From positions 21,924 to 85,923 of the forward strand of contig JAHWKM010000001.1 in the NCBI GenBank assembly GCA_019347895.1: a stretch of DNA of 64,000 nucleotides. Direction: 5' to 3'. Position 1 is the first letter of the stretch. Every line of letters begins with the position of its first letter. Both the position numbers and the translations under genes were made by a program. The notes beneath the pieces were generated by a model. The model saw only the letters and a list, made by a program, of their open reading frames with translations, did not search any database and was not told the DNA's origin. Below, one piece after another: positions 30,655 through 56,560 of this stretch. The DNA comes from Candidatus Parcubacteria bacterium (GTDB lineage: Bacteria; Patescibacteriota; Saccharimonadia; Saccharimonadales; 2-12-FULL-41-12).

Positions 30655-31050
30655 CTAAGCATTGCGCAGATTAGTTCGTCTTGGCCTATCTATTTTACCT
30701 TTAGGTTGCTCAAATTTTTCAACTACTATGTAATTTTTTGCAGTGCTCACTATATGTTCAATACTTGGCACCTCATGGCCTGGCAGTATAACAAACTGGC
30801 TGCTATTTTTATGAAGAGCTTCGTATTTGCTTGGCTTCATCCGTATTCTTTTCGTACAATTCTCGTCTGAACATTCACAATAAAAATCTACAAGAGGGTT
30901 TGAATCATTTAGAAGCTCTTTTTGCTCTTGCTGCGTAGCAATTTCTCTAAGTTCCTTGAACCCGTCAGAGACTTTTTTATTTGGTTGCCTGAAATACAGC
31001 TGGTTTTCTGCCAGCCGCTGTTTGGTTATTGAATCATTAATAATTTACAC
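30655..31050 (-). pseudogene. Cys-rich ORF with no ATG at its 5' end. It is either a degenerate gene or one using a non-canonical start. Only the 61-aa tail (30655..30840) begins with ATG.
   Basis: The minus-strand frame reads ...RQPNKKVSDGFKELREIATQQEQKELLNDSNPLVDFYCECSDENCTKRIRMKPSKYEALHKN...LRNA*. This open frame of about 130 aa contains a CxC...C motif but has no in-frame ATG upstream of the Cys cluster. Confidence 0.35.
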
Positions 31051-31101
31051 CCATTCAATAACCATAATGGGCCTATATCAAGATTCTCACTGTAATAAAT
31101 T

Positions 31102-31689: not shown

Positions 31690-31767
31690 GAATTCAATAG
31701 TATCAAAGAAACCAATTGATTCTGTAAGATTTCTTGCATAATTTAGATTCTAGTTATGGCAGGCGTG

Positions 31768-32745: not shown

Positions 32746-32803
32746 TAATTAATCATATCAAATAAAGACGCCAGCAGATCACTGGCAAATAGAGGTTTTG
32801 AGC

Positions 32804-33052
32804 CTACTTAACCTTGATGTTTTTGCGGGTCATTAAGCGCAAGTTGGCGATGTAGTGCTGGGGATTGGTTGAAGGGTGAGTTCGCAGATAACGTTTATGT
32901 TTTTCAACGAATGAAATTTTATTATCCGGATATAGCTCTCCATTAGCGCTATAGCTGGACTTGGTATGATACCCTTCATCTGTTGCCATTTGCAGAAGGA
33001 CGCGCTCTATATCAGCGCCATCCTCAGTTTCGAAAAAGTCTTGTTTAGCCAC
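32804..33052 (-). CDS. Hypothetical protein (82 aa).
   Basis: ORF only. Confidence 0.3.
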   Translation of the reverse strand: MAKQDFFETEDGADIERVLLQMATDEGYHTKSSYSANGELYPDNKISFVEKHKRYLRTHPSTNPQHYIANLRLMTRKNIKVK

Positions 33053-33097
33053 GTTAATTCCTTTGTAAACAATTATACACTACAGAGGCGGGAATTA

Positions 33098-34306
33098 CTA
33101 ATCAGTTATGAAAGTAAGCGCGTGGCCTATGCGCCCGGCCCGCCCGGCCCGGCCGATACGGTGGATGTAATCATCGTATCCTTTGGGCAGCGAGAAGTTG
33201 ATAACGTGCGTGATATCTACTACGTCAATACCGCGGGCTGCTACATCGGTAGCGACCAAGATAGTGACCTCGCTTTTCTTGAATCTGGACAATGCGCGTT
33301 CGCGGTGGCCCTGAGTTTTGCCGCCGTGTATGGCACCGGCAGAAAAACCGCGCTGTAGCAGCTCGTTGCTCAGGCGCTCCACGTTTCTTTGGGTTTCGTC
33401 AAAAACGATTACCTTTTCCACTTCTTCTTTCAGCAGTATATTATGCAGCTTTTCCATTCTGTCTGAATTGCCGGCGTAGCGGACTACGTTTTGGTGGACA
33501 TTTTCGCTGCCGCCGCTGGATTTTAGCGTGACGGTAAACGGGTCCTTGGTGAACCGGCTGATAAGATTTCGGATTTTCACGTCCATGGTGGCTGAGAAGA
33601 AAAACGACTGGCGGTTTTCGCTCAGCTCATCCAATATAGTCGTCACGTCATGTATGAAGCCCATGTCCAGCATGCGGTCTACCTCGTCTAATACTACAAG
33701 GTTGAATTTTTGCAGTTTTAAGGTACCGCGCTCAATATGGTCTTTGGTCCGGCCGGGCGTACCGATGACTATGCGCGGATTATACTTGAGGTCGCGCAAC
33801 TGGGTTCCCATGCTTGAACCGCCGATCAAAAGCGCGCCGGAAAGGCCGCTGCCCTTGCCCAGTTCACGGCATTCCTGCTCGATTTGCTGGGCTAACTCCC
33901 GGGTAGGGGCGATTATAAGAGCCGCCGAAGTATTGTCAGTGGTCAGCTTTTGAATAATTGGCACGGCGAAGGCCGCGGTTTTGCCGGTGCCGGTGCTGGC
34001 TATGCCGATTACATCTTGGCCCTTAAGCGCTGCCGGAATAGCCTGGTCTTGGATGGGCGAAGGAATTTCATAGCCTTTGGTCGCCAGGTTATCCTTCAGC
34101 CCTTGGCTGATCGCGAAGTCCGTGAAGCTGTGCCTGGGAACGTATTCCTCAGCCAACGTGAGATTAGCCGTTTTTACAAACCGGGCAGGGTCAATATATT
34201 GACCCATAGGCCGGCGGCTGCCTCTGGATTGATTATTCCGGCGGCCGTTGGTTGAAAAGCGCTTTGAAGCGCCAAATTTATTATTAGAACGAAATGTATA
34301 TGACAT
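33098..34306 (-). CDS. DEAD-box ATP-dependent RNA helicase.
   Basis: The Q-motif region is followed by motif I ASTGTGKTAAF, Ia PTRELAQQ, II VLDEVD, III SAT, V ATDVAARGID and VI HRIGRAGRAG. A basic N-terminal extension is present. Confidence 0.9.
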   Translation of the reverse strand: MSYTFRSNNKFGASKRFSTNGRRNNQSRGSRRPMGQYIDPARFVKTANLTLAEEYVPRHSFTDFAISQGLKDNLATKGYEIPSPIQDQAIPAALKGQDVIGIASTGTGKTAAFAVPIIQKLTTDNTSAALIIAPTRELAQQIEQECRELGKGSGLSGALLIGGSSMGTQLRDLKYNPRIVIGTPGRTKDHIERGTLKLQKFNLVVLDEVDRMLDMGFIHDVTTILDELSENRQSFFFSATMDVKIRNLISRFTKDPFTVTLKSSGGSENVHQNVVRYAGNSDRMEKLHNILLKEEVEKVIVFDETQRNVERLSNELLQRGFSAGAIHGGKTQGHRERALSRFKKSEVTILVATDVAARGIDVVDITHVINFSLPKGYDDYIHRIGRAGRAGRIGHALTFITD

Positions 34307-42951: not shown

Positions 42952-43076
42952 CCTCCATTTTATACGTATAATTCTGGCAATTAATAAAAAGTATGACTAT
43001 ACAATTTGTTACAAATTTTAGAGTCGGGGGCAGGGTAGCGGACACGTTCTCCCTTAAGGCAAATTGATAAATAAGA

Positions 43077-43814: not shown

Positions 43815-43951
43815 CCAATAATCTTCTTTTAAGGTTTCTATATTAGTCTATTGATTATTTGTAAAGATTATGCTATAATTCCAACATAAATAAAGTGTGC
43901 GGGTTTTGCGAGATAACTTCTCGCAAGGACCGAAGGAATATTAGCTAAATA

Positions 43952-44917
43952 ATGATAACGTACCTGCAGGAAGAGATTTTTACCAAGCTGGACGGCCGTT
44001 ATATTGCGCGAAGGCTTAAACAGGCTCGAGTGCAAAATAGCCGGCTGTTAAAGGCTGGGGTTCGCAGCACACGCCGGGCATATTTAGCCTGGTATCGCCA
44101 GCAGTATTTTTTGTCGGTAGCTAATAAAGACTTGAAGATGGCTGTCCGGCGCAATGAAGACATATTTATCGCTGTAGTTTTTGCCGCAGCCGTTTTGAGC
44201 TTTGCCTGTGCGGTTATTGCTGCAGAGATGGTCATCGCGTTTTTCTTAACGGCTTTTACGGCCTCGGAAGTTAGCGGCATCAACATATTGATATTCGCTC
44301 TCATTGCCGGCGTCACTTTGACGACAATTTTAGCCTGGGTAGCGGCTTTTTTGCTCAACTCTATGTCGCTTGCCATAATTCAAGGTGCTAATCGCCACAA
44401 AATCCGTTCCCTGCGCTCGACACTTCGGCAAGGATTACGAATGGCCAGCCGCACGGCGACTTCATGGCTGATGTTAATTGGGGCAATAGCTTTGCCCGCA
44501 GCAGCAGTGTCTTTGGCCATGTTTGTTTATACCTTGTTATTTGCTGACAATTTGTATGACATTCTGGCTGTTGCGCCTTATGCAATAATTTTCGCCGCCG
44601 CGGGCGCGATATTAATGCTTTTACACTACAGTCTTGTGCCGGTCGTGGCCTTATTTGAGACTAAGCTGTCTTGGAGGCAGGTTTTTGCCCGCAGCCGACA
44701 ATTGGTTTACCGCCGGGGAAAGATGTTTGTTCTGGCTGCTTACGGTTTTTTGGCAATAGTTCTGTCGGCCGCTTATGTCCTATACAAGCTTCTTTATAAC
44801 CTGACTGGTTTGGACGGAACTTTGCTATTTAGCTTGATAGCTATTGTCGCCGTGGCATATTTTAACGGCATAATGACTGTCTTTTACCGCAAACGCCGTC
44901 TTGTGCGCAGTCGCTGA
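43952..44917 (+). CDS. Polytopic membrane protein (321 aa), unknown family.
   Basis: A basic N-terminal 60 aa is followed by about 6 TM helices. Confidence 0.45.
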   Translation: MITYLQEEIFTKLDGRYIARRLKQARVQNSRLLKAGVRSTRRAYLAWYRQQYFLSVANKDLKMAVRRNEDIFIAVVFAAAVLSFACAVIAAEMVIAFFLTAFTASEVSGINILIFALIAGVTLTTILAWVAAFLLNSMSLAIIQGANRHKIRSLRSTLRQGLRMASRTATSWLMLIGAIALPAAAVSLAMFVYTLLFADNLYDILAVAPYAIIFAAAGAILMLLHYSLVPVVALFETKLSWRQVFARSRQLVYRRGKMFVLAAYGFLAIVLSAAYVLYKLLYNLTGLDGTLLFSLIAIVAVAYFNGIMTVFYRKRRLVRSR

Positions 44918-45415
44918 TAGGCTCCTTGGAATAGAACTTTATCAGCAGTCTGTTAAAGCCGTTATTCTATAAATGCCTTAAACCGATTAGTCTTTACGCA
45001 TAGCTGAGTGCATACTTATAAATAACAGATTTAGTATGGCGAGCGATTAATTAAAAAGAAAGAAACATGTTAAACCCAACTTCACTAATAAATAAACACA
45101 TCAGAAGCATAAAAGTACGCTCACAGCACTATATAAGTAACAAAGGCGAGCCAAAAGACAACATTTCGCACGACACTCTCTTAAAAGATGAAACCGTAAT
45201 AACCGGGAGCAGTGTGCCTATGAGACGCCGGTTTAGGCATATAGCCAAACAAATAAGAATAATTAGAATAAATAAATTAAAAAATGAATATCTAAAGTAG
45301 TAATCAAAAAATCTCATCTTTTGATAAGGTTAATATTTTGTAGGCGGGCAGGTACGGCTTACTCTACCGGGCAGTAGTGGAACCTGCCTGATCTTATTTA
45401 GATATTGCTGGTATT

Positions 45416-46141
45416 TTAACTAAGCTCTGCCTGCAACTTAGATAAATCCCGGACTATAAAACGATGAGCTTTTTGACCCATGAGCTTTTCATTAAAAAGT
45501 AATTCCACGGCCCTACTGGCCGTCTCACGGTTCATATTTATAGAATCGGCTAAATCCTGATGAGTTATGGGAGCGTCAATGACAATTTCAGTGCCATGCT
45601 GCCTGCCAAATCTCTCAGCTAGATATAGTAACTCCGAGATAATTCTACCGCGAGCTGAGCGAAATTCCAGAGTTTGAATCCGCTTGGTATAACTGGTAAT
45701 TATATTTACTGACTGCTTTAAAATTTCTTGTGAGAGCCACGCATTGTGACCCAAGGCGGCACGCAGCTTGTTTTTGGGTACCCGGAGAATCGTAACGTCA
45801 TTCATAGCTTCATAAAATAACCCCGTGGTATGCGGTCCGTCCAGTGCCCAGGGCATTGGTATGAACTCATTAGCCTCATGAACTATCAGAAGATTCCCAT
45901 GACCATGATGTGATACAGAATGCGCCTTGACGAATCCCTTTTTAATGAGATAAACACCCTCGGGCTCGTCATATCCGTGGATAATCGTTTCTTCGCGTGC
46001 AAAGTGCAAAAGCAAGCCATCACTGAAGTGAGCGACGATACTTTCGTTCTCATTATGTCGAGCTGGCGTCGTATTCATTGATTGTCTGGCCATAAGTCTA
46101 GTATATACGAATACAAACGCTAAGTTTGTGATATAGCGCAC
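45416..46141 (-). CDS. Crp/Fnr family transcriptional regulator.
   Basis: It has a cNMP-binding-like beta-roll (GVYLIKKGFVKAH...) and a C-terminal HTH (ITHQDLADSINMNRETASRAVELLFNEKL). Confidence 0.75.
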   Translation of the reverse strand: MRYITNLAFVFVYTRLMARQSMNTTPARHNENESIVAHFSDGLLLHFAREETIIHGYDEPEGVYLIKKGFVKAHSVSHHGHGNLLIVHEANEFIPMPWALDGPHTTGLFYEAMNDVTILRVPKNKLRAALGHNAWLSQEILKQSVNIITSYTKRIQTLEFRSARGRIISELLYLAERFGRQHGTEIVIDAPITHQDLADSINMNRETASRAVELLFNEKLMGQKAHRFIVRDLSKLQAELS

Positions 46142-46253
46142 ATCCTTGTAAAAACACTCGTACTATACTTACTCCAGTAGAAGGTTAGCTTATTCCGCCC
46201 GCAGTAGTGGGAAGGGGCTTGCCGAAACTGATAGGTGATGTCTACGTAAGCAA

Positions 46254-47552
46254 GTGATAAGAGGGTCAATTATTTCTCACGCAACTTCGGAAATCAAGAA
46301 AAAACAACCCATTCAGGAGTATTTAGATAGTTCTGCCCAGCCACAGGATGATACTTCTAGTAATTCACAAGTAGCTGGTAGCCTACAAAAGATCAACAAC
46401 AAAAAAATCAGTCAACAAGAGACTCATATTACAGCTCTAAAAAAGCTGCTAGGCTATTACCAAGATATTACTGAGACTATCAGAGAACCCTTTATCATTC
46501 TTGATAAAGACTTTCGCGTCGTTACGGCCAACGAAGCGTTTTATCACCAATTTAAGGTACTTAAAAAAGATACGGAAAACAGATCATTCTACGAGCTGGG
46601 TAATAATCAATGGGACACCCCAGATTTAAGAGAATTACTAGAAAACATTCTCCCTAAGCATCAGGTACTCAACAACTACGAGATTACGCACGATTTTCCT
46701 GGTATCGGACATAAAACTATGCATCTCAATGCCAGACAGGTCGATGCCAAACAGCTCATACTACTTGCCATAGTAGACGTTACCCGGCAGAAGCAATTGC
46801 AAGATGATACTATCGAGATGACCGCAAGTCTGATTAAGCAACGAAACAAGCTCCAAGGGCTCAATGATGCTAAAGATGAATTTATTAATATGGCTTCCCA
46901 TCAGCTCCGTACTCCCGCCACAGCCGTGAAACAATATATTGGAATGTTGGCGGAAGGATATTGGGGCAAGCTGTCGGAAGTCCAAAACAAAATGCTTAAT
47001 ACAGCCTACGAAAGCAATGAGCGAGAGCTAGAAATAATAGAAGACATGCTTAGAGTGGCTAAGGTAGATGAGGGCAAGGTCTATTTAATAAAGTCGTCTT
47101 GCGACATGGCGCGGCAATTAGAGGAAGCTGTGAAGGATCAACTTGCCTCGTTCAATAACCGCGGGCAAAGCATTGTTTTCAACAAGCCCTTGGAACCGGT
47201 AATTGCCTCCATTGATAAAAAATTAATGCGTATGGTTATAGAAAATCTATTGGATAATGCCAGTAAGTATTCTTACGAAGACAAGCAGATTACGATTGAC
47301 CTCAAGCAGGACGACAAGCTTGCTGTTATTGCGATAAAAGACCAGGGCGTGGGGATACATAAAAAAGATCATGTAAAATTATTTCAAAGGTTCTCCCGTA
47401 TAGACAATCCTCTTTCGATATCTGCGGAGGGTACAGGCCTAGGCTTATACTGGGTCAAGAAAATATTAGATTTGCATGAAGGCAGTATGGAAGTAATTTC
47501 AAGAGTAGACTACGGCTCAACTTTTACGGTTAAACTACCCGTTCTGAACTAA
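46254..47552 (+). CDS. Cytoplasmic PAS-domain sensor histidine kinase.
   Basis: No TM helices. It has a PAS-like region, the HisKA H-box MASHQLRTPATAV, and HATPase_c motifs (N-box DNASKYS, G-boxes GTGLGLYWVKKI). Confidence 0.8.
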   Translation: MIRGSIISHATSEIKKKQPIQEYLDSSAQPQDDTSSNSQVAGSLQKINNKKISQQETHITALKKLLGYYQDITETIREPFIILDKDFRVVTANEAFYHQFKVLKKDTENRSFYELGNNQWDTPDLRELLENILPKHQVLNNYEITHDFPGIGHKTMHLNARQVDAKQLILLAIVDVTRQKQLQDDTIEMTASLIKQRNKLQGLNDAKDEFINMASHQLRTPATAVKQYIGMLAEGYWGKLSEVQNKMLNTAYESNERELEIIEDMLRVAKVDEGKVYLIKSSCDMARQLEEAVKDQLASFNNRGQSIVFNKPLEPVIASIDKKLMRMVIENLLDNASKYSYEDKQITIDLKQDDKLAVIAIKDQGVGIHKKDHVKLFQRFSRIDNPLSISAEGTGLGLYWVKKILDLHEGSMEVISRVDYGSTFTVKLPVLN

Positions 47553-47577
47553 AAAGAATCCATAATGCTTATGCTTA

Positions 47578-47640
47578 GTAGCGGGGGCCGGACAGCGGAC
47601 TTCGTCCTTCTTCGCTCCGGCGTGCTCGGAATAAATTCCT
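47578..47640 (-). repeat. Diverged partial copy of the element resembling the tRNA-fMet 3' end. It is the candidate outermost att site of the island.
   Basis: gtagcgggggcCgg... followed by tccttcttcgctccggcgtgctcggaataaa. It is related to 48125..48263 and 52730..52868. Confidence 0.5.
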
Positions 47641-48067
47641 AGCTTCGGGCTTCAGCCCCTGAAATTGTTCCAAATACTTGGTAAGACTCCCCGTTATCGT
47701 TGTTTATGCCTGCAATTATATGTTGCAATTCAACAGCGCTGTCTTCGTAGACGCCTTGCAGCATTAATTCAAAGTATGCTGCTGTATTTCTATTGCCAGC
47801 CGTTTTTTCCTCGGCTTCTCCCATAGCTCTTTTTACCAGATCAGGGTCAAAACCATGGTATATTCTGTCCGAATAATTATAGTGAGTTCCGGGGAGGTCT
47901 TGAATGCCTCTTCTCGGGAGTACTAAACCTTGAGCCAAGAAAATAGTTCTACCGCCAACAGACCTAGTAAATCTTTCGTCGGTAAAGTGGGGGTAGAGCA
48001 TATGCGAAGGAATTTCCTGATCCTTTAAGCGTACTGGTTCAAGCTCACCAAATGCTGTAAATGCCAT
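47639..48067 (-). CDS. Hypothetical protein (142 aa).
   Basis: ORF lying directly downstream, on the minus strand, of repeat copy 48125..48263. Confidence 0.4.
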   Translation of the reverse strand: MAFTAFGELEPVRLKDQEIPSHMLYPHFTDERFTRSVGGRTIFLAQGLVLPRRGIQDLPGTHYNYSDRIYHGFDPDLVKRAMGEAEEKTAGNRNTAAYFELMLQGVYEDSAVELQHIIAGINNDNGESYQVFGTISGAEARS

Positions 48068-48124
48068 AGTTATAATAAACTATCATATTGTTAAGATTAT
48101 GCCAACAACAGCAATGGTTCAATC

Positions 48125-48263
48125 GTAGCGGGGGCAGGGCATCGCGCGCCTTTGGCGCACTCCTTCTTGCGATGCTCGGCAATAAAATGTAAACACTTTA
48201 TTGTCCTGTGCTTCTCATTCGCCGAACCTCCGGTTCGTGTCCAGCCCCGCTGCTATCGAAGAT
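48125..48263 (-). repeat. 139-bp element, copy 1. Its first 14 nt (gtagcgggggcagg) are identical to the 3' end of tRNA-fMet. It is a candidate attR or integrative-element end.
   Basis: It is near-identical (about 4 mismatches) to 52730..52868. It contains the hairpins GCGCC-AAA-GGCGC and CGAACC-TCC-GGTTCG. Confidence 0.7.
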
Positions 48264-48287
48264 GTGAAATTTCGGTAAAACAAGTTA

Positions 48288-48656
48288 TTAACTTCTGCTT
48301 TGTACATACAGGCTGACGAAAAGTACCAAAATTCCGGAAAGTGCAAATATTCCAGAAGGAATCAACCAAATTAACCCACCCAATCCTTCGTAGAGGAATA
48401 TTGCCCCAAAGCAAAGGGCTGCTAGCAGTAATAAAACTAATGATAGCTTAAACGGTTTGCTCGTCGGCTTGCTAATACCCGGGGTACCATTTTTGAATGT
48501 CGTAATATGGTAGACTGGAATTAATAATATCCCTAATATAATCAAGCTTACACCTGGCCACCGGACCGCTCCTCCTCCGTCATTATCCAACAACACATAT
48601 AAACCCCATCCCGCTACGATCAGTATAGGTGAAAAGATTTTTATTATCATGTCCAC
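48288..48656 (-). CDS. Small 4-TM membrane protein (122 aa).
   Basis: ORF, strongly hydrophobic. It lies inside the AT-rich island. Confidence 0.4.
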   Translation of the reverse strand: MDMIIKIFSPILIVAGWGLYVLLDNDGGGAVRWPGVSLIILGILLIPVYHITTFKNGTPGISKPTSKPFKLSLVLLLLAALCFGAIFLYEGLGGLIWLIPSGIFALSGILVLFVSLYVQSRS

Positions 48657-49002
48657 ACTATAGCAAAAGAGGTCTTAACAACCTCAACTCGGGCAATAAT
48701 TTGCTCCGGGTTTCTGGCTGTCCGAACTACCATCTGGCAGTTCTCCCCTGCGACCTTTCTAGCGTCGCAGATTCGAGCCGTGGCTCCGACAAAGAAAAAA
48801 GCTCTGGAATGGGTCCAAAGCTTTTTTCTTGGTAGACATGACTTTGAAGAGTTGATTCATATTAAAAAAGAACTGTTGTCAATGCGGCAGATAGTGAATG
48901 AAGCACAGAGCTTAACGAAGGTTATAACATGAGCAACAGTACTAGAACCGTGCACTTAAATAAAGTAAGGCTTTACATTAATTACTCTGATAGAATACCT
49001 GT

Positions 49003-49575
49003 ATGAGTAAGTTAGATTTAAACAGTAAAGATATATTATTGTTGCTTATCTACACAAAAATAAACAACGAAGAAAATGGATCAATTTCAGGTAGAACAAG
49101 GATTATGAAGTTATTGTTTTTATTTAAGAAGGAAGTCTTCAAAAAATTTAAAAACGATGGCCAAGATTTAGATAAACTTAAATTCGATGCATGGAATTAC
49201 GGACCATTTTCAAAAGAAATCTATGATGATATAGAATTTCTTTCTAATATTGGTTTTTTAAGTGTAAGAATAAGTGAAGAAGATACGTCAATTGAGGAGG
49301 CAGCTGAATACAATCATTGGGAAGATGGATTTAGTGACTCTAATGATGTAGAAGAATTTACACAAGAGGAATTCTCGCTTACTGATCAAGGTAATAAATA
49401 CGTGGAAATAGAACTATGGAATAAGTTAAGCGAAGCTCAAAAAAGTGTGCTGGGCGAGTTCAAACAAAGCTTCGGAACTGTTCCATTGTATGCACTTCTT
49501 GAATACGTTTATAAAAAGTACCCCAAATACACAACCGAGTCTAAAATTAAAAATAGAGTACTTGGTAGGTCATGA
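49003..49575 (+). CDS. Panacea-domain (DUF4065) protein, SocA/PanA antitoxin-like.
   Basis: ILLLLIYTKINNEENGSISGRTRIMKLLFLFKKEVFKKF...KLKFDAWNYGPFSKEIYDDIEFL fits the DUF4065 core (hydrophobic KLLYL helix ... F.AW.YGP... Y). It is the first gene of a four-gene overlapping operon in an AT-rich island. Confidence 0.6.
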   Translation: MSKLDLNSKDILLLLIYTKINNEENGSISGRTRIMKLLFLFKKEVFKKFKNDGQDLDKLKFDAWNYGPFSKEIYDDIEFLSNIGFLSVRISEEDTSIEEAAEYNHWEDGFSDSNDVEEFTQEEFSLTDQGNKYVEIELWNKLSEAQKSVLGEFKQSFGTVPLYALLEYVYKKYPKYTTESKIKNRVLGRS

Positions 49576-50081
49576 ATCCGACGGCTGGTGAGGTTATAAC
49601 AGGGCTGTGGTGGATTCCCTTTCTTTTTCAAAGCATACCTCTTCTAGCATTTCTTTTTAGCCAGTTTTTAATAAAAGATCAAGATTATAGCGATAAAGTG
49701 GGATTATTTATTAATGCCAATAAAGCAAATCATGCAAAAGCACTAAAACGATTTGTTGTAACTGAAATAGATGGCGATATAGAGGAGAAGTGCCTAGAGT
49801 TTATCAATGAAAGTAGCCGTCGTTTTAAGCTTACGGCCGCGCTAAGCTCCTATGGGAAAATCTACACAAAATTAGCAAGTATATCCTTAAGGCTATTAAT
49901 AGCTTCAAGTGTTATATTCATTGCTGGAGTTGTAGCAGTTCTATTAAACGATAAAGCAGAAATATGGGCATTAAGCGTTAATACTGTTCTAGCAATTTCA
50001 AATATTACGATAATTTATGCTATGAGGCATTATCTCGTAAAGCTTCAGTCCCTGGCGGGTAATGAGGATATCAGTACATGA
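49572..50081 (+). CDS. Membrane protein with N-terminal and C-terminal TM helices flanking a soluble region. It is a candidate toxin or effector partner of the Panacea gene.
   Basis: Its start overlaps the upstream stop (ATGA). The TM helices are GLWWIPFLFQSIPLLAFLFSQFLI and LLIASSVIFIAGVVAVLL...VLAISNITIIYA. No family recognised. Confidence 0.45.
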   Translation: MNPTAGEVITGLWWIPFLFQSIPLLAFLFSQFLIKDQDYSDKVGLFINANKANHAKALKRFVVTEIDGDIEEKCLEFINESSRRFKLTAALSSYGKIYTKLASISLRLLIASSVIFIAGVVAVLLNDKAEIWALSVNTVLAISNITIIYAMRHYLVKLQSLAGNEDIST

Positions 50082-50476
50082 GTGAATATCAACTACAGCA
50101 ATGGTTTGCTGTCTATTTGCAGAGTCAAGGATTTACTGTTTATCAAGAAGTACCTTTTTTATCTCGATCAATTGATATTGTTGCGGAAAAAGATGACGTT
50201 ATTTTAGCCTATGAACTAAAACTTAACGATTGGCGTAAGGCAGTAGCGCAATCAAGCGACCATCTACATGGAGTCGATAGGTCATATGTGTGCATGCCCT
50301 TAAAGTCAAAGATCAATGAAGAATTGATTCACTTAATTCAGGCTAATGGACTTGGGCTTGTTGTTTTTAATATAGAAGCTCAGACTGTCGAGGAAATTAT
50401 TCCTGCCCTTGATTCCGGGTCAGTTTGGCAACCTGCGAGAAAGTGGTTAACTACGGGCATGGAGTTTGCGTTATGA
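50078..50476 (+). CDS. Small PD-(D/E)xK nuclease-fold-like protein (132 aa).
   Basis: It is coupled to the upstream gene by an ATGA overlap. The core ...EVPFLSRSIDIVAEKDDVILAYELKL... carries a D-x(n)-E-x-K arrangement (IDIV ... ELK) typical of restriction-endonuclease-like folds. Confidence 0.4.
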   Translation: MSEYQLQQWFAVYLQSQGFTVYQEVPFLSRSIDIVAEKDDVILAYELKLNDWRKAVAQSSDHLHGVDRSYVCMPLKSKINEELIHLIQANGLGLVVFNIEAQTVEEIIPALDSGSVWQPARKWLTTGMEFAL

Positions 50477-51792
50477 GCGTTACACATTATTTACGATTTG
50501 GAACACACGCTGAGAGCAAGTACTTTCTTGGTAACGGTAAAGACATGTACGATTCGATTATTTTTAATGGTAATATGGTCGCCTATACACAATCAGCAAT
50601 TGCAGCATTCATCATAAATACTCACGAAAAAGGTTTCCTAATTGATCCACAGACACATGCATTTCAGCATGATCTAAGCTACTTAAAAAGTAAAAACTCA
50701 AAAGGCGAAGAGAAGATTAAGCAATCTATTCAGCAATTGGCAGATATGCTGGGGAATCCTGTATTAAGTAAGCTTGAATCGAGCCTCCCAGTAACACCTT
50801 CTGACTTTGGAGAGCAGCCGGTCATCGATGCCTTTGCGGAAAAAGTTATTAAGTTTCAAAGCAACATTATAGATACTGTTAAAGAACAAGATGATTGGAA
50901 GTATCTTAAATTTAAACTTAAGGACCAGAAGTCTTCAGAGCCTGCACCTTCTGGTCTTATAGCACCTTATTTCTATATGAGCGAAGTTTCATACGATAGA
51001 TGGCTAGATATAAATGTAAAGCTTATAAATGCTTCAATCGCTCATAGTGGAGAATCTGAACTCATGGCACAACTTGTCATTGCTAAAGATGTTTTAACTA
51101 GCCCTGAAGATCCTATAAGTAAAATAATCGAAGAGTATGGAAACAGTGAGGCAAAAGCTGTTTTAATATGGGTTGATCAATTTAACACTGTAAATGCTTC
51201 CAAAACGGAATTAGCAGCTTTTAGGAGACTTGCAGAAGGCCTAAAGTCTAAGGGCAAAAGAGTAATCGACTTATATGGCGGTTACTTCTCTGTTCTTTTA
51301 AGTAAGAAAGAAATTCTTGATGGTGTCTGTCATGGACTTGAATATGGTGAATCTAGGGCCGTAAAACCAGTAGGAGGCGGTATACCTATGGCTAAATATT
51401 ATTTCTACCCACTTCATTACAGGATGAGATTCACAGATTTTCTTACGGTTCATAAAGCTATGGGTTGGGGAGTAAGTAAGAAATCATTTAATTCAAAGGT
51501 TTGCTCTTGCGAGAATTGCGAAGATGGAGATATCCAAAAGTTCGGCATAACAACACCAGTTAGAATAAAACGAAAATCGGGAATTGTAACACTAAACTAT
51601 CCTACCCAAGAGACTAAAGACCGTAGTCTTATTCACTATTTGAATTGCAAAAGACGAGAATTCAAAACTGTTCAGTCAAAAAGTATTGACGAGCTAAAGA
51701 AAGAACTAATCGACTCCATCAATACATACGAGAATGTGCTAGGTATAGAGTCAGTTTCCCATCTAAATAGATGGAACGATACTTTGAGCTAA
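50473..51792 (+). CDS. Large protein of unknown family (439 aa from the ATG at 50473) with a C-terminal Cys cluster (CSCENCEDGD).
   Basis: The ATG at 50473 overlaps the upstream stop (ATGA). The ORF track's earlier in-frame start at 50425 would overlap the upstream gene by 52 nt. No recognisable motifs beyond the Cys cluster. Confidence 0.45.
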   Translation: MSVTHYLRFGTHAESKYFLGNGKDMYDSIIFNGNMVAYTQSAIAAFIINTHEKGFLIDPQTHAFQHDLSYLKSKNSKGEEKIKQSIQQLADMLGNPVLSKLESSLPVTPSDFGEQPVIDAFAEKVIKFQSNIIDTVKEQDDWKYLKFKLKDQKSSEPAPSGLIAPYFYMSEVSYDRWLDINVKLINASIAHSGESELMAQLVIAKDVLTSPEDPISKIIEEYGNSEAKAVLIWVDQFNTVNASKTELAAFRRLAEGLKSKGKRVIDLYGGYFSVLLSKKEILDGVCHGLEYGESRAVKPVGGGIPMAKYYFYPLHYRMRFTDFLTVHKAMGWGVSKKSFNSKVCSCENCEDGDIQKFGITTPVRIKRKSGIVTLNYPTQETKDRSLIHYLNCKRREFKTVQSKSIDELKKELIDSINTYENVLGIESVSHLNRWNDTLS

Positions 51793-51819
51793 GATTTAAA
51801 AATCTATTTTGATTACTAA

Positions 51820-52182
51820 CTAGGTTTTCGCTTCGTTTGTTCCTAAGATGATGTATTTTGAAAGTGACCTAATTCCCAAATATAAAAGATACAGAGTAAG
51901 ACCGGACAGTATTATAGTTGCAATTTCTTCCGTCAAGACATCGCTTGAATCACAAATTTGTGTTCCTTGATCAAGATTATATCTAAGCCGCTTTTGTGCC
52001 ATTGAAGTGCCAGTGGTTCGAGCGGGGTCGTTATCCGCATTACATTCACTAATACTTCTAACACTGCTATCCAATATAAATACAAACACTATGATCGCTA
52101 AAAGAATATAAATTACTTTTATAAATCGCCACTTGGCATTTTCTTCTAATTTCTTAGTATGGTTTTTCTTCGGCTTGTTCAT
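51820..52182 (-). CDS. Small 2-TM membrane protein (120 aa) with a Cys-containing loop.
   Basis: ORF with the TM helices VIYILLAIIVFVFIL and IILSGLTLYLLYLGI. It lies in the AT-rich island. Confidence 0.4.
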   Translation of the reverse strand: MNKPKKNHTKKLEENAKWRFIKVIYILLAIIVFVFILDSSVRSISECNADNDPARTTGTSMAQKRLRYNLDQGTQICDSSDVLTEEIATIILSGLTLYLLYLGIRSLSKYIILGTNEAKT

Positions 52183-52224
52183 GTGTTTAGTTGCCTTTTA
52201 AATTTATTAAAAACTGTGACTAAT

Positions 52225-52653
52225 TTATCGTATTTTACGAAGTAAAGAAGCAAAGACATTAGCTGTGCGTTTTCTTTTAACATCATATCCAAAATGCCCA
52301 AGCACCATAGCTGCTGCTGCCTCTTGCTTATCAACAAGTGCTTCTGCTTGTTCTTGTTGAAACGCTGATCCGTGAATTTCGTTGTGTCGCTTGTATATTA
52401 ATCCGTCGCCGACCAATCCCCTTACCAAGGAAGTTGCGAGTTTAGGTCCACCCGAGTTATCAGTTAGGGTAATTGGGCTAGTGATAACCCTTCCTACTGG
52501 TATCATCTCACCAGTCTCTGGCTCATCGTATGCTACTAGAATAGTATCTACTACACCTTCTTGGTGCATTCTTTGCACAGGAGGTATAACAGGGTAGAAT
52601 TTAGCTTCGACCCCAGCAGTGTTTGCTAAGCCTAAAGTATCGGCACCAATCAT
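52225..52653 (-). CDS. Hypothetical protein (142 aa).
   Basis: ORF directly downstream (minus strand) of repeat copy 52730..52868. Confidence 0.4.
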   Translation of the reverse strand: MIGADTLGLANTAGVEAKFYPVIPPVQRMHQEGVVDTILVAYDEPETGEMIPVGRVITSPITLTDNSGGPKLATSLVRGLVGDGLIYKRHNEIHGSAFQQEQAEALVDKQEAAAAMVLGHFGYDVKRKRTANVFASLLRKIR

Positions 52654-52729
52654 ATTATGATTATAACATTATTGATGCTATATGTAAATTAACTTGTAAG
52701 TAAAATAATTTTACTGCCTTTTCCACGGA

Positions 52730-52868
52730 GTAGCGGGGGCAGGGCATCGCGTGCCTTTGGCGCACTCCTTCTTGCGATGCTCGGCAATAAAATGTAAACA
52801 CTTTATTGTCCTGCGCTTCTCATTCGCCGAACCTCCGGTTCGTGGCCAGCCTCGCTGCTATCGAAGAT
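52730..52868 (-). repeat. 139-bp element, copy 2. Its first 14 nt are identical to the 3' end of tRNA-fMet. It is a candidate proximal att site.
   Basis: It is near-identical to 48125..48263. It lies 205 bp downstream of the tRNA-fMet 3' end on the same strand. Confidence 0.7.
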
Positions 52869-53073
52869 ATGCAATTAAAACAATCGAAAAAATAGATGGG
52901 CAGGAATCCGTCGTCGGCTAAAGCCTCCTTTGGGATATGCCGCTGTCTTTCTCGAAGCAAGCTTCTGCGAGAGCCAGCCTGTTATCGAACCTGTGGTTCG
53001 CTGCGCTCTCGCATCAGGTTCGAGTCTGGCTCCGTACATGAAAAAAGCCCCTAAAATATAGGGACTCTTTTCA

Positions 53074-53148
53074 TGGTAGCGGGGGCAGGACTCGAACCTG
53101 CGACCTTGTGGTTATGAGCCACACGAGCTGCCGCTGCTCCACCCCGCG
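53074..53148 (-). tRNA. Initiator tRNA-fMet (CAU).
   Basis: The reverse complement reads CGCGGGGTGGAGCAGCGGCAGCTCGTGTGGCTCATAACCACAAGGTCGCAGGTTCGAGTCCTGCCCCCGCTACCA. The 5' CGCGGGGUGGAGCAGC is identical to the E. coli tRNAfMet start. Position 1:72 is unpaired (C1-U72), as in initiator tRNAs. The anticodon loop is CTCATAA and the CCA is encoded. Confidence 0.85.
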
Positions 53149-53270
53149 TCGTCGTCACAGCTCAGCAACTTTCTTGCCAAACTAAGACGTGACTTATAGT
53201 TTGGCAGCCATGTTTACTGGCTGCTCCTCTCAATTTTACAAACAGCTGTGCTTGGTTTGCAAAATTGGTT
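53149..53270 (-). promoter_or_regulatory. Promoter plus roughly 75-nt leader of tRNA-fMet. It is copy A of a duplicated module of about 120 bp shared with tRNA-Met.
   Basis: On the minus strand, TTGCAA (53257..53262) is followed 18 nt later by TAAAAT (53233..53238). The leader contains the hairpins CAGCCA-GTAAACA-TGGCTG and CCAAACTATAAG...CTTAGTTTGG. It is about 95% identical to 55347..55466. Confidence 0.6.
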
Positions 53271-53406
53271 CTGGGCTGCATTAAATCTTCGTAAACCCAG
53301 GAACCGAAGTAACATCTTAGCAAACAGGGGTAGGATTGTCAATCTATCGCAAAATAAATAGCCCGCGTTTTTACATGCGGACTATTTTGGCTTTAACCGT
53401 TACTGA

Positions 53407-53703
53407 TTAGTATCGGTTGCCGCCGCCGCCACCGAAACCGCCGCGGTTTTCGCGTGGTTTCATGGGGCGTGCTTCGTTGACGGTAATGCTGCGGCCGCCG
53501 ACATCGCTGCCGTTGGTAGCCTTTTCAGCTGCTTTACCTTCTTCGTCGTTTTCAAATTCGACGAAGCCGAAGCCTTTGCTGCGTCCAGTGTCGCGGTCAG
53601 TGATGACCTTGGCGCTGGCTACGCTGCCGTAAGCTGCAAACATTTGTTGCAACTCATCGTCATTGGTGGAAAATGGTAATCCACCTACGAATAGCTTGTA
53701 CAT
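53407..53703 (-). CDS. RRM (RNA recognition motif) glycine-rich RNA-binding protein.
   Basis: RNP-2 is LFVGGL and RNP-1 is KGFGFVEF. The tail is Gly-rich (RGGFGGGGGNRY). 98 aa. Confidence 0.85.
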   Translation of the reverse strand: MYKLFVGGLPFSTNDDELQQMFAAYGSVASAKVITDRDTGRSKGFGFVEFENDEEGKAAEKATNGSDVGGRSITVNEARPMKPRENRGGFGGGGGNRY

Positions 53704-53957
53704 GTGCTTGTTGTTTCCTTATTTTCTCTTATGACAATCGACCTAAAATCTACCTGACTTCCGACCTGACTGCAACTTGTCTATAAGAGAACCATTGAGC
53801 GATCTAGAAACATTTAAGATTCTGTATTGAGTATTGAATCACAAAAATGGCACGAGGTCAAAAGATATACACTTTTTTAGTTAACAAGACCATCTCGGTC
53901 GAGTGGCCGGGATGCCTAGTTCGCCAAAAGCGAACGGCTCAAAAGTCTACTACAGGG

Positions 53958-53985
53958 TTGACAAATCGTAATGCTTGTGTATAAT
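53958..53985 (+). promoter_or_regulatory. Near-consensus sigma70-type promoter (TTGACA, a 16-nt spacer with TGTG, then TATAAT). No CDS follows for more than 500 nt.
   Basis: TTGACA lies at 53958..53963 and TATAAT at 53980..53985, preceded by TGTG (an extended -10-like element). Confidence 0.55.
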
Positions 53986-53991
53986 GATAAT

Positions 53992-54352
53992 TGGTTTTAC
54001 AAAAACAAAAAATATTAAAAATAAAAAGGATGACAGGTGGCAGATTATATATTAAGTCCAACAAAAGAAAAATCGTTGATTAAAATTGACAAAATTCTAG
54101 TAAAAATCTAAGCGTTAGCGCAAAACAGGTAGAAGAGAAGCTATTTGTTTTTGAGCCACCATAATCACGGCAATGTTTTACTGTTCAAGAATTCTTGCAC
54201 CAGCTTAACCAGCTGTTGGAGCTGGTCTTGAGTTGGCATTTCGGGGCCGCAGAATGTGGCGAGATTTGAGCAAACGCACGATGTTAAACTAGCTTTGCTA
54301 TTTCAACATCTAACTATAAAAAGTAAACCGCCAGTCGGCGGTTGACTATTTT
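53992..54352 (+). ncRNA. Candidate non-coding RNA or long structured leader of about 360 nt. It runs from the orphan promoter to a terminator-like hairpin.
   Basis: No ORF above 20 codons has an RBS. There are multiple stable hairpins, for example ACCAGCT...AGCTGGT at about 54205..54232. A terminator-like AAACCGCC-AGTC-GGCGGTT plus a T-rich tract lies at 54325..54352. No match was recognised to RNase P, tmRNA, SRP or 6S signatures. Confidence 0.3.
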
Positions 54353-54518
54353 CTGCGACCTCATTTCGGTTGCAATTTCAACTCTCGACCAAAAATAAAA
54401 CCACCATAAAAGGCGGCATGATTTTTGGTAGCAGTGCCTTTGACGAAATGGAACAGTATTAAGGCTGAACTAATAACCATGTGGGAGATGGTAAAACAAA
54501 TCAGGGAAGAGACCGCTG

Positions 54519-55145
54519 TTGCAGCTAATGAGTGTTATTCAATCGCTCTGGTATTATTGTCTTATGGTAGATAAACATGAAATCGTAGGCCAGCACGTTT
54601 CTACATCGCTCGTGTATGGCAAGGACCTAAATCCCCAGGATTTGGGAACGATAAATCTTAATAGGAAGATTGAATTTAATTCAGAACCTTTCCAACCTAC
54701 TCCAGATAATGAGAACTGGGATAAACCCTACTTTATGGTAAAAGATGGCGATGAATTGCTAGCTTTTGGACGTTTACACTCAGTTGGTGTTGAACTTCAG
54801 GGTATGCCGAGTGAAATTTTAGGTGTTGCGACCATTATTTCTATTCATAAAAGCGAGGGTCATGGCAGAACATTGATGGAATACATGAGGCAACACATCG
54901 AAGAAACAGGCATGACGGCTATTGGATTTTGTGGTCAACACAATTCGGAATTTTATAGGAAATGTGGTTTCTCGATTCTTCCAAAAGGTACACATCGATT
55001 CACATTTCTGAATGATAAAGGCGAGATAGCAAAGCCGCACTATCCAGATAGTGATGTTCTGTATATTGACGGAAATGACCACTTAATTGAAACGCTAGTC
55101 GCAAATCCGACAGAGAGTATTACCGCGTACAGACCCGCTTGGTAG
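54519..55145 (+). CDS. GNAT family N-acetyltransferase. The probable start is at the internal ATG at 54564 (MVDKHE...).
   Basis: GVATIISIHKSEGHGRTLMEYMRQHIEETGMTAI...FYRKCGF is the GNAT motif A / acetyl-CoA-binding region (Q/RxxGxG/A) with a downstream FYxKxGF. Confidence 0.65.
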   Translation: MQLMSVIQSLWYYCLMVDKHEIVGQHVSTSLVYGKDLNPQDLGTINLNRKIEFNSEPFQPTPDNENWDKPYFMVKDGDELLAFGRLHSVGVELQGMPSEILGVATIISIHKSEGHGRTLMEYMRQHIEETGMTAIGFCGQHNSEFYRKCGFSILPKGTHRFTFLNDKGEIAKPHYPDSDVLYIDGNDHLIETLVANPTESITAYRPAW

Positions 55146-55269
55146 GTTGAGTAAAATAGTAGTTTGTAATACCTCAACAGCTTTATTTATACTTATTTTT
55201 GAAGCTTTGGCGCTTGGTGCCAGATATATCTAACTTTTCACATAATCTAATGATTAAAATGCTTATGTT

Positions 55270-55346
55270 TGGTAGCAGGGGCGAGATTTGAACTCGCGAC
55301 CTCAGGCTTATGAGTCCTGCGCTCTAACCAACTGAGCTACCCTGCC
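55270..55346 (-). tRNA. Elongator tRNA-Met (CAU).
   Basis: The reverse complement reads GGCAGGGTAGCTCAGTTGGTTAGAGCGCAGGACTCATAAGCCTGAGGTCGCGAGTTCAAATCTCGCCCCTGCTACCA. The D-arm GUAGCUCAGUUGGUUAGAGC is identical to E. coli elongator tRNA-Met. The anticodon loop is CTCATAA. The CCA is encoded. Confidence 0.8.
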
Positions 55347-55466
55347 GTCGTCACAGCTCAGCAACTTTCTTGGCAAACTAAGACGTAACTTATAGTTTGC
55401 CAGCCATGTTTGCTGACTGCTCCTCTCAATTTTACAAACAGCTGTGCTTGGTTTGCAAAATTGGTT
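55347..55466 (-). promoter_or_regulatory. Copy B of the duplicated tRNA promoter-leader module, upstream of tRNA-Met.
   Basis: It is about 95% identical to 53149..53270, including the -35, -10 and leader hairpins. Confidence 0.6.
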
Positions 55467-55538
55467 TGTGAAAACAGAGGTAAATAATAGCATATTTTAT
55501 GATCGTTATCTATGGCTTGCACTTGATATACTAAAGCA

Positions 55539-55988
55539 ATGAAGCTTAAGCATTTCGATAGCCGGATGATAAGTTTTTTTAACAGAGCTTTCATACCTTT
55601 GGCCAGACTTGCTTTTTTTGTTGTCTTTTTTTGGTTTGGATTTATCAAGCTTGTCGGTGCCAGTCCGGCCAGTCCGTTAGCCGAGGCTTTAGTAGCAAAA
55701 ACCGTTGGTATTGAGTGGTTTGATATTTTGTTTATAACTTTAGCCTTGATGGAATGCCTGATCGGGGTTTTGTTTTTAATTCCAAGGGCCGTTCGGCTGA
55801 CAATTTTGCTGCTATTCGTCCATATCTTGATCGTCAGTTCGCCGCTGTTATTACTGCCGGGTTACACCTGGGAAAGCTTCCTAATCCCGACGCTGGAAGG
55901 GCAGTATATTATCAAAAACATAGTAGTAATAGCCCTGGCTTTCGGCATCGCCGCCAACACAAAACCCCTCAAACTTCCTAAACTTTAA
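55539..55988 (+). CDS. DUF417/YkgB-like small polytopic membrane protein.
   Basis: 149 aa, 4 TM. RLAFFVVFFWFGFIKLVG resembles the DUF417 N-terminal signature. Confidence 0.4.
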   Translation: MKLKHFDSRMISFFNRAFIPLARLAFFVVFFWFGFIKLVGASPASPLAEALVAKTVGIEWFDILFITLALMECLIGVLFLIPRAVRLTILLLFVHILIVSSPLLLLPGYTWESFLIPTLEGQYIIKNIVVIALAFGIAANTKPLKLPKL

Positions 55989-56397
55989 ACAGATTAGGTT
56001 TGGATTTTTTTAGTTCCTGCACTGGTAAGAATAAGGGCTTGGGATGCTCAGCCAGCTTGTACCAGCCTACATCAGTAAATTTATCGGACTCAATAGTTCT
56101 TGGTTCGCCGCTGGCCCAATCGCATACAACGAAAATAGTGATGCTGTGGTGATGTTCATTCTTAAAAACATTGTTTACTGTCGCCAGCAGTTTGATGTTC
56201 TTAATCTTGACGCCGGTTTCCTCAAGGACTTCACGGACCGCGCAGTCTTCAAAAGTTTCGCCAAATTCAAGGTGGCCGCCCGGCACCGACCAAGTGTTTC
56301 TCCCGTGTTCGCCAACTCTTTTGCCGAGTAGGTATTTGCCGTCTTTTTGAACTAAAACACCAATGCCGACAAATGGCCGCTTTGGCTTACTGGCCAT
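55978..56397 (-). CDS. NUDIX hydrolase.
   Basis: GGHLEFGETFEDCAVREVLEETGV is the Nudix box Gx5Ex7REUxEExGU. Confidence 0.85.
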   Translation of the reverse strand: MASKPKRPFVGIGVLVQKDGKYLLGKRVGEHGRNTWSVPGGHLEFGETFEDCAVREVLEETGVKIKNIKLLATVNNVFKNEHHHSITIFVVCDWASGEPRTIESDKFTDVGWYKLAEHPKPLFLPVQELKKSKPNLFKV

Positions 56398-56560
56398 ACT
56401 GGCCTGCTTTCGAGCAGAGCTCGAAACTCTGCCAATATTCTTGGCACATGATCCTTATTTTTAGCTCAAATACTCCCTTCACCGTACTTTTTGTACGGCT
56501 CGGTCCGCTTTTCCCCAATAAATAAGATCCTGCACTCAAACCAGAAACCCAAAATATCAT
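56398..56560. repeat. Intergenic repeat element, copy B, of about 160 bp. It is a diverged relative of 12396..12550.
   Basis: It shares the modules ttcttggcac, cttcaccgtacTTTTTgtacggctcgGtcc (hairpin CCGTAC/GTACGG), cctgcactcaa and ccagaaaccc. Confidence 0.55.

Follow-up and report, generated by a model that had tools for sequence, protein, structure and literature searches.

Serial integration at tRNA genes has been described for the tycheposons of Prochlorococcus, which use tRNA-Met(CAT) among other tRNA genes and leave partial tRNAs scattered through the islands (10.1101/2020.12.28.424599). Typical tRNA-integrating elements share an identity block of about 40 nt with their target (10.1101/2020.12.28.424599), and the Islander database rests on the same tRNA-island principle (PMC4383910). 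Here we analysed a 64,000-nt stretch of contig JAHWKM010000001.1 (hereafter the window) from a Saccharimonadia bacterium of the Candidate Phyla Radiation (CPR, Patescibacteria), in which an element of 147 nt, with a copy of the 3′ end of the initiator tRNA (tRNA-fMet) at one end, is repeated within an array next to a tRNA-Met(CAT) gene. The closest documented kind of locus is a tRNA-seeded island arising from successive integrations. As in the Islander and tycheposon islands, an intact tRNA stands at one end, direct partial copies of its 3′ end lie at segment borders, several segments follow one another and are older the further they lie from the tRNA, the cargo varies and is atypical in composition, and there are degenerate remnants. 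The array differs from those islands in several ways: neither within it nor close by is there an integrase or replication module, the identity block is 14–18 nt, each tRNA copy is set in a conserved structured module with an inverted copy and a T-loop insert, and the host belongs to the CPR. With moderate confidence, we interpret the elements as attachment or junction modules belonging to segments that lack an integrase and entered one after another at the 3′ end of the initiator tRNA-Met gene.

A repeat search of the window returned one family of 147-nt repeats, with full copies at 48125–48271 (W1) and 52730–52876 (W2), both on the minus strand, 96% identical (BLAST E 1e-52) and spaced 4605 nt apart. 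The initial annotation had called the two near-identical over 139 nt, and four mismatches fall inside that span. It had also recognised the 3′ end of tRNA-fMet at their head, and this is borne out exactly: the first 14 nt of W1 and W2, GTAGCGGGGGCAGG, are the reverse complement of the 3′ end of tRNA-Met(CAT) (53074–53148, minus strand). The 14-mer is found without mismatch at 48125, 52730 and 53076, the last being the tRNA end itself, and with one mismatch, as GTAGCGGGGGCCGG, at 47578, which makes four occurrences in a window where 0.0002 are expected by chance. In the tRNA direction the head reads CCTGCCCCCGCTAC (48125–48138 in W1, minus strand) and comprises the 3′ strand of the T-stem, the 3′ strand of the acceptor stem and the first C of CCA; the tRNA gene itself ends in CCTGCCCCCGCTAC-CA. 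The further heads detected by BLAST, at 52730–52743 (the same 14-mer) and 47578–47591 (one mismatch), are likewise on the minus strand, so that all head copies share the orientation of the tRNA. Similarity between W1 and W2 stops sharply at the head and fades gradually at the opposite end, where TTGTTTTA is common further out. A crossover at the head would be expected to leave just such a sharp edge there and a fuzzy one at the other end.

A third copy, W3 (47578–47635, minus strand), was recovered by BLAST and by profile and consists of the head-proximal module alone (CGAG..GAAGAAGGAC-GAA-GTCC-GCTGT-CCGGCCCCCGCTAC). It is about 70% identical to the full copies over 58–63 nt, sharing the head, with one mismatch, and about 45 further nucleotides, and a sequence model of the head-proximal module scored it at E 1e-13. 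A diverged third copy overlapping the end of a neighbouring 142-aa gene had been proposed at this place; the copy is real and short, and it abuts the stop codon of that gene (open reading frame, ORF, ending at 47639) with no true overlap. The assembly around the full copies can be compared with Logan unitigs of run SRR15827330, which are identical to 43939–48169 and 48179–52782 and break inside the repeat; the breaks lie inside a 61-nt core identical in W1 and W2, so the junctions cannot be phased from the unitigs. The 4604-nt unitig was considered as a possible circle and set aside, its ends sitting within that 61-nt stretch, as expected from short-k-mer repeat collapse. The end of the neighbouring unitig at 48169 does not fall exactly on a k=31 boundary, and the 4604-nt unitig is uninformative on circular forms.

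The body of the element is built from the tRNA as well. Read in the tRNA direction, a full copy consists of an inverted arm, a T-loop hairpin, an AT-rich hairpin, an outer stem holding AAGAAGGA and a small hairpin, and the head. The inverted arm (CCGGTTCGTGTCCAGCCCCGCTGCTA on the plus strand, 48230–48255; 52835–52860 in W2) is a diverged inverted copy of the last ~27 nt of the tRNA, matching its 3′ end CAGGTTCGAGTCCTGCCCCCGCTACCA at about 21 of 27 positions as counted by direct reading, and it pairs with the head to close a cloverleaf-like fold. Joined straight to it is a direct copy of the 5′ strand of the T-stem and the start of the T-loop (GGAGGTTCG), and the two together form a hairpin that reads CGAACC-GGA-GGTTCG in the tRNA direction and CGAACC-TCC-GGTTCG at 48223–48237 (52828–52842 in W2). 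The last three bases of the T-loop are replaced by a hairpin-rich insert of about 90 nt, made of the AT-rich hairpin CAATAAAATG-TAAA-CACTTTATTG (48180–48203; 52785–52808 in W2) and, as predicted by folding, the outer stem GCATCGC/GCGATGC at 48139–48175, which surrounds a small hairpin, GCGCC-TTT-GGCGC, and a conserved unpaired tract, ACTCCTTCTT (AAGAAGGAGT on the minus strand). Two perfect small hairpins had been noted at the outset. The hairpin where the inverted arm meets the direct copy is perfect in W1 and W2 alike, whereas the other, which reads GCGCC-AAA-GGCGC in the tRNA direction (minus strand), is perfect in copy 1 only: in copy 2 a C>T change leaves a G-T pair on the plus strand and an A-C on the minus strand.

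Folding on both strands, which had been suggested as a check, gave structures far more stable than those of shuffled sequences (z score −4.4 for the minus strand and −3.7 for the plus strand). For the closing stem and three hairpins, folding energies of −55 to −58 kcal/mol were computed for RNA and about −31 for DNA, and the GC content of the element is 0.54 against 0.44 for the genome. A structured non-coding RNA is one way to read these data. Such a tRNA-like RNA of about 135 nt would have a closing stem copied from the acceptor stem (AGCGGGG/CCCCGCU) and three hairpins in place of the D, anticodon and T arms, and would act on enzymes that handle tRNA-fMet or, if made from the plus strand, pair with the tRNA 3′ end. 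The stable cloverleaf-like fold and the raised GC content speak for it, as do the perfect complementarity of the plus-strand 5′ end of the element to the last 14–18 nt of tRNA-fMet and the small hairpin beside the AAGAAGGA/TCCTTCTT tract, whose shape is retained although its sequence varies (GCGCC/GGCGC, GGAC/GTCC and GGC/GCC). The two changes in W2 that weaken stem pairing on the minus strand are also compatible, as G-U or G-T pairs, with pairing on the plus strand only.

Nevertheless, we consider such an RNA unlikely. An Rfam cmscan of 47000–56000 at E values up to 10 gave no match to the tRNA clan (CL00001), to tmRNA or to the Y-RNA-like YrlA (RF02553) on W1 or W2, the sole match there being a structure-less lncRNA model (E 0.012), and ARAGORN called neither a tRNA nor a tmRNA on the element. 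On neither strand does W1 or W2 come with a convincing promoter or terminator. The partial copies, W3 and three in the related contig L010 described below (units A–C), are without the 5′ half, and in the relatives the inverted arms have decayed and the closing stem is lost. Covariation among homologues, a further check that had been proposed, came to one clear compensatory pair among what are effectively 3–4 independent sequences.

The tRNA-Met(CAT) gene at 53074–53148 (minus strand; 60.9 bits with the Rfam tRNA model, and called by ARAGORN) is initiator-like, with a mismatch at pair 1-72; it supplies the head sequence and is the target gene. Directly behind it lies a degenerate unit, WA (52877–53073, minus strand), homologous to L010 14641–14826. 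WA comprises a two-way terminator (53041–53071), an inverted pseudo-3′ end (53011–53040; 81% identical to the tRNA end over 63 nt, E 1e-8), a hairpin CGAACC-TGT-GGTTCG (52986–53000), a AAAGGAGGC tract and a truncated head (52896–52909), and the 3′ third of the tRNA, the terminator and the WA inverted arm together make a long imperfect palindrome. Similarly, within the interval between the full copies lies WB (48743–48842, minus strand; 80% identical to WA over 35 nt), with a degenerate head CTTGGTAGACATGAC at 48828–48842, a two-way terminator at 48795–48827, an inverted arm at 48764–48794 and a remnant of the direct arm, GTCGCAGGGGAG, at 48743–48754. At the other end of the array, the flank that adjoins the W3 head (GCTTATGCTTA, 47567–47577, minus strand) resembles the trailer of the second tRNA-Met gene, both here (55270) and in L010 (21042), and also the flank of the outermost, distal head of L010 (13237). 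This likeness of the outermost flank to a tRNA-Met trailer fits a displaced original trailer, and GCTTATGCTTA is, on its sequence, probably the original tRNA trailer displaced by insertions.

From these borders we infer that recombination at the heads, by a recombinase supplied from elsewhere, created the array, and in what order. Each insertion would recombine at a core of 14–18 nt identical to the tRNA 3′ end, leave the tRNA intact and push the earlier cores, the present heads, further downstream. The ~125 nt beside each head would be an element-side arm derived from the 3′ third of the tRNA, as an inverted copy followed by a direct copy with an insert; an arm common to sibling elements would explain why two copies are 96% alike. 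In the tRNA direction, the locus would then read as tRNA, terminator and a cargo-less sibling (WA to W2); a more recent low-GC insertion at the W2 head, carrying an operon with a Panacea-type gene and one of the 142-aa genes; a sibling with a 122-aa membrane ORF (WB to W1); and an older segment with the other 142-aa gene and W3, followed by the original tRNA trailer. A recombinase encoded elsewhere would act on the heads. Several observations support this reading: heads identical to the tRNA, all in one orientation, lie at sharp borders of segments that differ in gene content and composition; the similarity of W1 and W2 has its sharp edge at the head; the outermost flank is trailer-like; and the head-proximal 34–38 nt are 97% identical across genomes in which the neighbouring kinase is 71% identical. 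In the relatives described below, the variable kinase-to-tRNA-fMet interval, the single units of L031 and L057 and the mostly matching T-stem bases also count in its favour.

Alternatively, the units may be functionless relics, fold-back (template-switch) duplications of the tRNA-fMet 3′ end and its terminator, with the cargo gained by unrelated means. One stretch of ~35 nt does recur through the locus in direct, then inverted, then again direct form, and the terminator loop is the midpoint of a long palindrome; truncation or degeneration is seen in several copies (the WA head, WB and unit B of L010), and W2 carries changes that weaken its stems. We hold this to be unlikely, in view of the 97% conservation of the head-proximal 34–38 nt between genomes at about 70% protein identity, the 96% identity of W1 and W2 on either side of foreign-looking DNA, and the coincidence of heads with segment borders in three genomes.

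A search of related genomes for the element had been suggested. A histidine kinase gene adjoins W3, with a Crp gene as its neighbour, and its relatives at 60–73% identity are mostly labelled Saccharibacteria or Saccharimonadales. Modules related to the element lie downstream of tRNA-fMet in three other Saccharimonadia contigs, L010 (GCA_040384045.1) and the metagenome contigs L031 and L057 from the Joint Genome Institute (JGI). In L010 the kinase is 71% identical, the Crp–kinase neighbours are kept, and tRNA-fMet lies ~3.6 kb from the kinase. Behind it are heads at 14644, 14455 and 13237, in an array of ~1.6 kb; the first unit is homologous to WA, and two of the heads carry a head-proximal module 97% identical over 34–38 nt to that of W3. 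L031 and L057 each have tRNA-fMet, a terminator and then exactly one unit. A further contig, L070, keeps the Crp–kinase neighbours (kinase 68% identical) with tRNA-fMet ~3.7 kb from the kinase, and its interval holds a heliorhodopsin gene and small ORFs parted by other TGGTAG.. motifs, each right after a hairpin terminator. The kinase-to-tRNA-fMet interval, ~5.5 kb here, differs in length and gene content among the relatives that keep the Crp–kinase neighbours, and across L010, L070, L031 and L057 the content of the locus differs between the same landmarks. The neighbourhoods of four other kinase homologues (P0002, P0006, P0009 and P0012) are not syntenic and yielded no tRNA-fMet locus.

The units follow the tRNA beside them. 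The T-stem is GCAGG/CCTGC in the tRNA and in most units here and in L010 (CCTGC/GTCGCAGG), while in L031 and L057 the tRNA has GTCGG/CCGGC and the arms and head of the unit carry CCGGC/GGTCGTCGG. W3 and unit B of L010 are exceptions (CCGGC). The T-stem bases agree within L031 and L057, and for the most part here and in L010, so units tend to match the resident tRNA. The borders within L070 are of another kind: at 12838, 13246, 13768 and 14322 there are three near-identical TGGTAGGCAAGGATAGGA..ACTTGGAATCA motifs and one TGGTAGCCGAAGTACATTCGAATTGGAAC; only the last resembles a motif at 13400 in L010. These represent a second and a third type of CTACCA-ended border motif that do not come from the resident tRNA-fMet end.

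The element could have been a generic dispersed repeat, and this was put to searches of several collections. The sequence model of the head-proximal module, run over ~200 kb of sequence, returned the known copies and, as its sole addition, a weak relic. In the genome collection, a pattern without the head (TCCTTCTT..TGCTCGG.AATAAA) had seven matches, all by chance and none with a head. The metagenome scan with the head and TCCTTCT gave 49 matches, of which L031, L057 and possibly L058 are real and the others are chance matches in GC-rich coding sequence. Scans of viral contigs, one of them with a poorly designed pattern, and blastn against phage and plasmid collections found nothing similar. 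No copies away from tRNA-fMet were seen in the genome, viral, phage and plasmid scans or in the window, except for the weak relic, which argues against a generic dispersed repeat as far as these collections and the 64 kb of this genome go.

The relic lies at 43021–43060 (minus strand), between two unannotated ORFs and beyond the Crp and kinase genes; it reads GCCTTAAGGGAGAACGTGTCCGCTACCCTGCCCCCGACTC and matches the head-proximal module weakly (14.6 bits, E 0.006). It may be an older remnant of an array that once reached further. L058 (JGI Ga0310786_10007939) holds at 12769–12935 a tRNA-Met-like sequence with a CAT anticodon, GCAGGTTCGAACC, in which ~71 nt interrupt the sequence after the T-loop and before CCTGCCCCCGCTACC. 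ARAGORN called no tRNA on it, and it is followed by an island with Wadjet-like genes (MksE, DUF3584) and HipA. Here, too, an island border may coincide with a tRNA end interrupted in the T-loop, in a case that arose independently. It was left out of the argument, being a degenerate tRNA-like sequence from a different organism.

Small mobile repeats offer a further comparison. Rickettsia palindromic elements, Correia elements and ERIC sequences are hairpin repeats of 100–150 nt with terminal inverted repeats that sometimes abut or enter the ends of ORFs. Unlike palindromic repeats and miniature inverted-repeat transposable elements (MITEs) of this kind, the copies here are confined to one tRNA-linked array, lie in one orientation, derive from the tRNA and show no target duplications. 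For the element to be a MITE, its 14-nt terminal inverted repeats would have to resemble the tRNA-fMet 3′ end by chance, and its transposase would be encoded elsewhere. The terminal inverted repeats (TAGCAGCGGGGCTGG / CCTGCCCCCGCTAC), the small size, the strong hairpin potential and the presence of two near-identical copies are what one would look for in a MITE. Nevertheless, all copies within the window are limited to the tRNA-fMet array, none of them shows a target-site duplication, the left edge being fuzzy with a flank that belongs to the repeat, and scans of the genome (head-less pattern), viral, phage and plasmid collections gave no copies, which leaves a MITE very improbable.

Between the full copies lies an interval of 4.6 kb with seven ORFs on both strands. 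Most of it is a low-GC cargo segment of 3.9 kb (48843–52729; GC 0.364 against 0.444 for the window), which holds a four-gene operon, a 120-aa ORF and the second of the 142-aa genes, all of a patchy, accessory kind; the remainder, 48272–48830, is of typical GC and contains the 122-aa membrane ORF. The operon (49003–51792, plus strand), in which stops and starts overlap, encodes a 190-aa protein with a Panacea/SocA-like antitoxin domain first, followed by proteins of 169, 132 and 455 aa. The last three gave no family match except a weak YraN-like match of the 132-aa protein (E 8e-4). The operon is probably a toxin-antitoxin or defence module.

Each full copy stands upstream of a minus-strand ORF of 142 aa, and the initial annotation had pointed to both. 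Gene 1 (47639–48067) is the cargo of a 547-bp segment between the W1 and W3 heads and is 57 nt (48068–48124) from the element; gene 2 (52225–52653) is separated from it by 76 nt (52654–52729). The two proteins were compared and have no similarity, confirming the genes as unrelated, and their equal length is therefore coincidental. Gene 1 has two homologues only, both in unrelated contexts without the element. Gene 2 has homologues elsewhere at 57–78% identity. One of these, at 58% (P0131, 148 aa, no Pfam domain), is encoded in the str operon between fusA (EF-G) and tuf (EF-Tu), and this fusA–tuf placement, without the element, recurs in ten CPR contigs (L078–L087, JGI). The uncharacterised gene 2 family may be related to translation.

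The position of both copies 57–76 nt upstream of a minus-strand ORF had raised the idea that the element is a shared promoter or 5′ untranslated region. The best sigma-70-like promoter in the region, TTTACA-17-TGnTATAAT (52688 to 52660, minus strand; 11 of 12 matches, with an extended −10), belongs to gene 2 and sits between the element and the gene, outside the element. W3 has no gene downstream on the minus strand, and neither it nor the units of L010, L031 and L057 lie upstream of comparable genes. With the promoter outside the element, unrelated genes and homologues that do without the element, the pairing with the 142-aa genes is incidental, and a shared regulatory function for these two genes is extremely unlikely. 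It fits better to see the element as the downstream end of the segment that comes before it.

Attachment-site arms had also been suggested, and in outline this stands: heads lie at sharp segment borders, homologous modules lie by tRNA-fMet in other genomes, and the scans above gave no copies at unrelated loci apart from the weak relic. Arm-type binding sites for an integrase or excisionase had been put forward as well; no gene of that sort was detected in the window. Several points weigh against the reading of the elements as junction modules of inserted segments. No integrase, recombinase or transposase appears among the window ORFs of at least 150 aa or in the cargo (Pfam, PHROGs, PADLOC and NCBIfam), and a PDB sequence search with the 455-aa ORF was negative for a recombinase. 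The identity block with the tRNA is just 14–18 nt, against the ~40 nt typical of tRNA-integrating elements, and in its inverted-plus-direct layout with a T-loop insert the element is unlike ordinary attP arms. A very degenerate head, with CTACCAAG alone in common, closes the low-GC block, and the weak relic at 43021–43060 blurs W3 as the outermost junction. We saw neither an empty site nor an excised circle or free element, nothing similar turned up in viral, phage and plasmid collections, and the full-length form of W1 and W2 was found in this genome only. Moreover, the unit right behind the tRNA is conserved in four genomes and may be a resident structure rather than an insertion.

Arrays of integron attC sites, including integrase-less attC clusters, share features with the locus: imperfect palindromes of ~60–140 nt between small gene segments, a crossover at the palindrome edge, a short core similar to the primary site, cargo of toxin-antitoxin type and cassettes that contain no recombinase. 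The element is, like attC, an imperfect palindrome within the range of 57–141 nt that folds as a hairpin. Its ends, TAGCAGCGGGG ... CCCCCGCTAC, do not conform on direct reading to the attC boxes RYYYAAC...GTTRRRY, GTAGCGG being a misfit to GTTRRRY. The window has no intI or other tyrosine recombinase gene, no attI and no Pc. Integron cassettes are single, promoterless, co-oriented ORFs; here the segments have their own promoters, as seen for gene 2, mixed orientations and up to six genes, with the seven ORFs of the interval on both strands, and the primary site would be a tRNA gene.

Integrative mobile elements exploiting Xer (IMEX) of the CTXphi type are also integrase-less; they form tandem stacks at one chromosomal site and exploit the host Xer recombinases. 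In the attachment region of CTXphi, two target-like sequences lie ~90 nt apart in inverted orientation; when folded, they can give a forked hairpin in which a duplex target is restored. The present locus differs in having a tRNA gene as its site in place of dif, on position and skew and with no search for Xer motifs, and in the absence of phage genes. A terminus-like skew and a switch in gene orientation occur near 30 kb and not at the array at 47–53 kb. By analogy with attC and the CTXphi attP(+) hairpin, the element could be a folded single-strand DNA site, in which the inverted and direct copies of the tRNA end would pair and rebuild the duplex target, so that a recombinase encoded elsewhere captures cassettes. 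We regard this as distinctly unlikely; if true, CPR bacteria would possess an integron-like platform for gene capture that is seeded on their initiator tRNA gene.

Several other candidates were rejected. A casposon or transposon insertion with target duplication was dismissed on account of cargo segments without terminal inverted repeats, a retroelement with a primer-binding site and a polypurine tract for want of a reverse transcriptase, and a guide RNA of TnpB, IscB or IS110 for want of any such protein. The idea of an intron in the T-loop of a functional tRNA fails on the absence of a 5′ half and of a known bacterial mechanism, and a small ORF behind the AAGGAG tract on a start codon that is not conserved.

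Other features of the window were recorded. A 121-nt stretch, 96% identical between its two copies, lies directly upstream of both tRNA-Met genes (53150–53270 and 55346–55466, minus strand; the second gene at 55270–55346) and contains a promoter-like TTGCAA-18-TAAAAT (53262 to 53233) and a hairpin-rich leader. It was not found upstream of the L010 tRNAs, which suggests that the two tRNA-Met loci have recently undergone duplication or gene conversion. The cumulative GC skew peaks at ~28000–34000, and long ORFs turn from mostly plus (1–30 kb) to mostly minus (31–44 kb). This would fit a replication terminus near 30–31 kb, ~17–22 kb from the tRNA-fMet array. A 32-nt sequence, CTGCCGGAGCCAGAAACCCCACTGGCTTCTTG, is found at 12413–12444 and 15524–15555 (97% identity, 3.1 kb apart), with a partial third copy at 11781–11806; with its GCCAG..CTGGC hairpin, it could be a shared terminator or a small repeat. 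A direct repeat of 69 nt, at 12471–12539 and 56471–56539, is 71% identical over a distance of 44 kb and has the conserved core CTTCACCGTAC.T..TGTACGGCTCG.

The genomes of CPR bacteria and Saccharibacteria are tiny, and how they gain genes is little understood. Our study suggests that small accessory segments, some of them with genes of toxin-antitoxin or defence-like type, repeatedly enter at the 3′ end of the initiator tRNA gene. A tRNA-linked island array with a structured, tRNA-derived junction module and no integrase nearby is an unusual version of a known route of gene gain. Since short-read unitigs break exactly at the repeat, such arrays are easily mis-assembled or lost in metagenome-assembled genomes. 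Should the module be a relic only, it would amount to an ordinary island scar. If it is an active recombination site, it would constitute a compact gene-capture system in a major uncultured lineage and would provide a sequence signature for finding such arrays in metagenomes.

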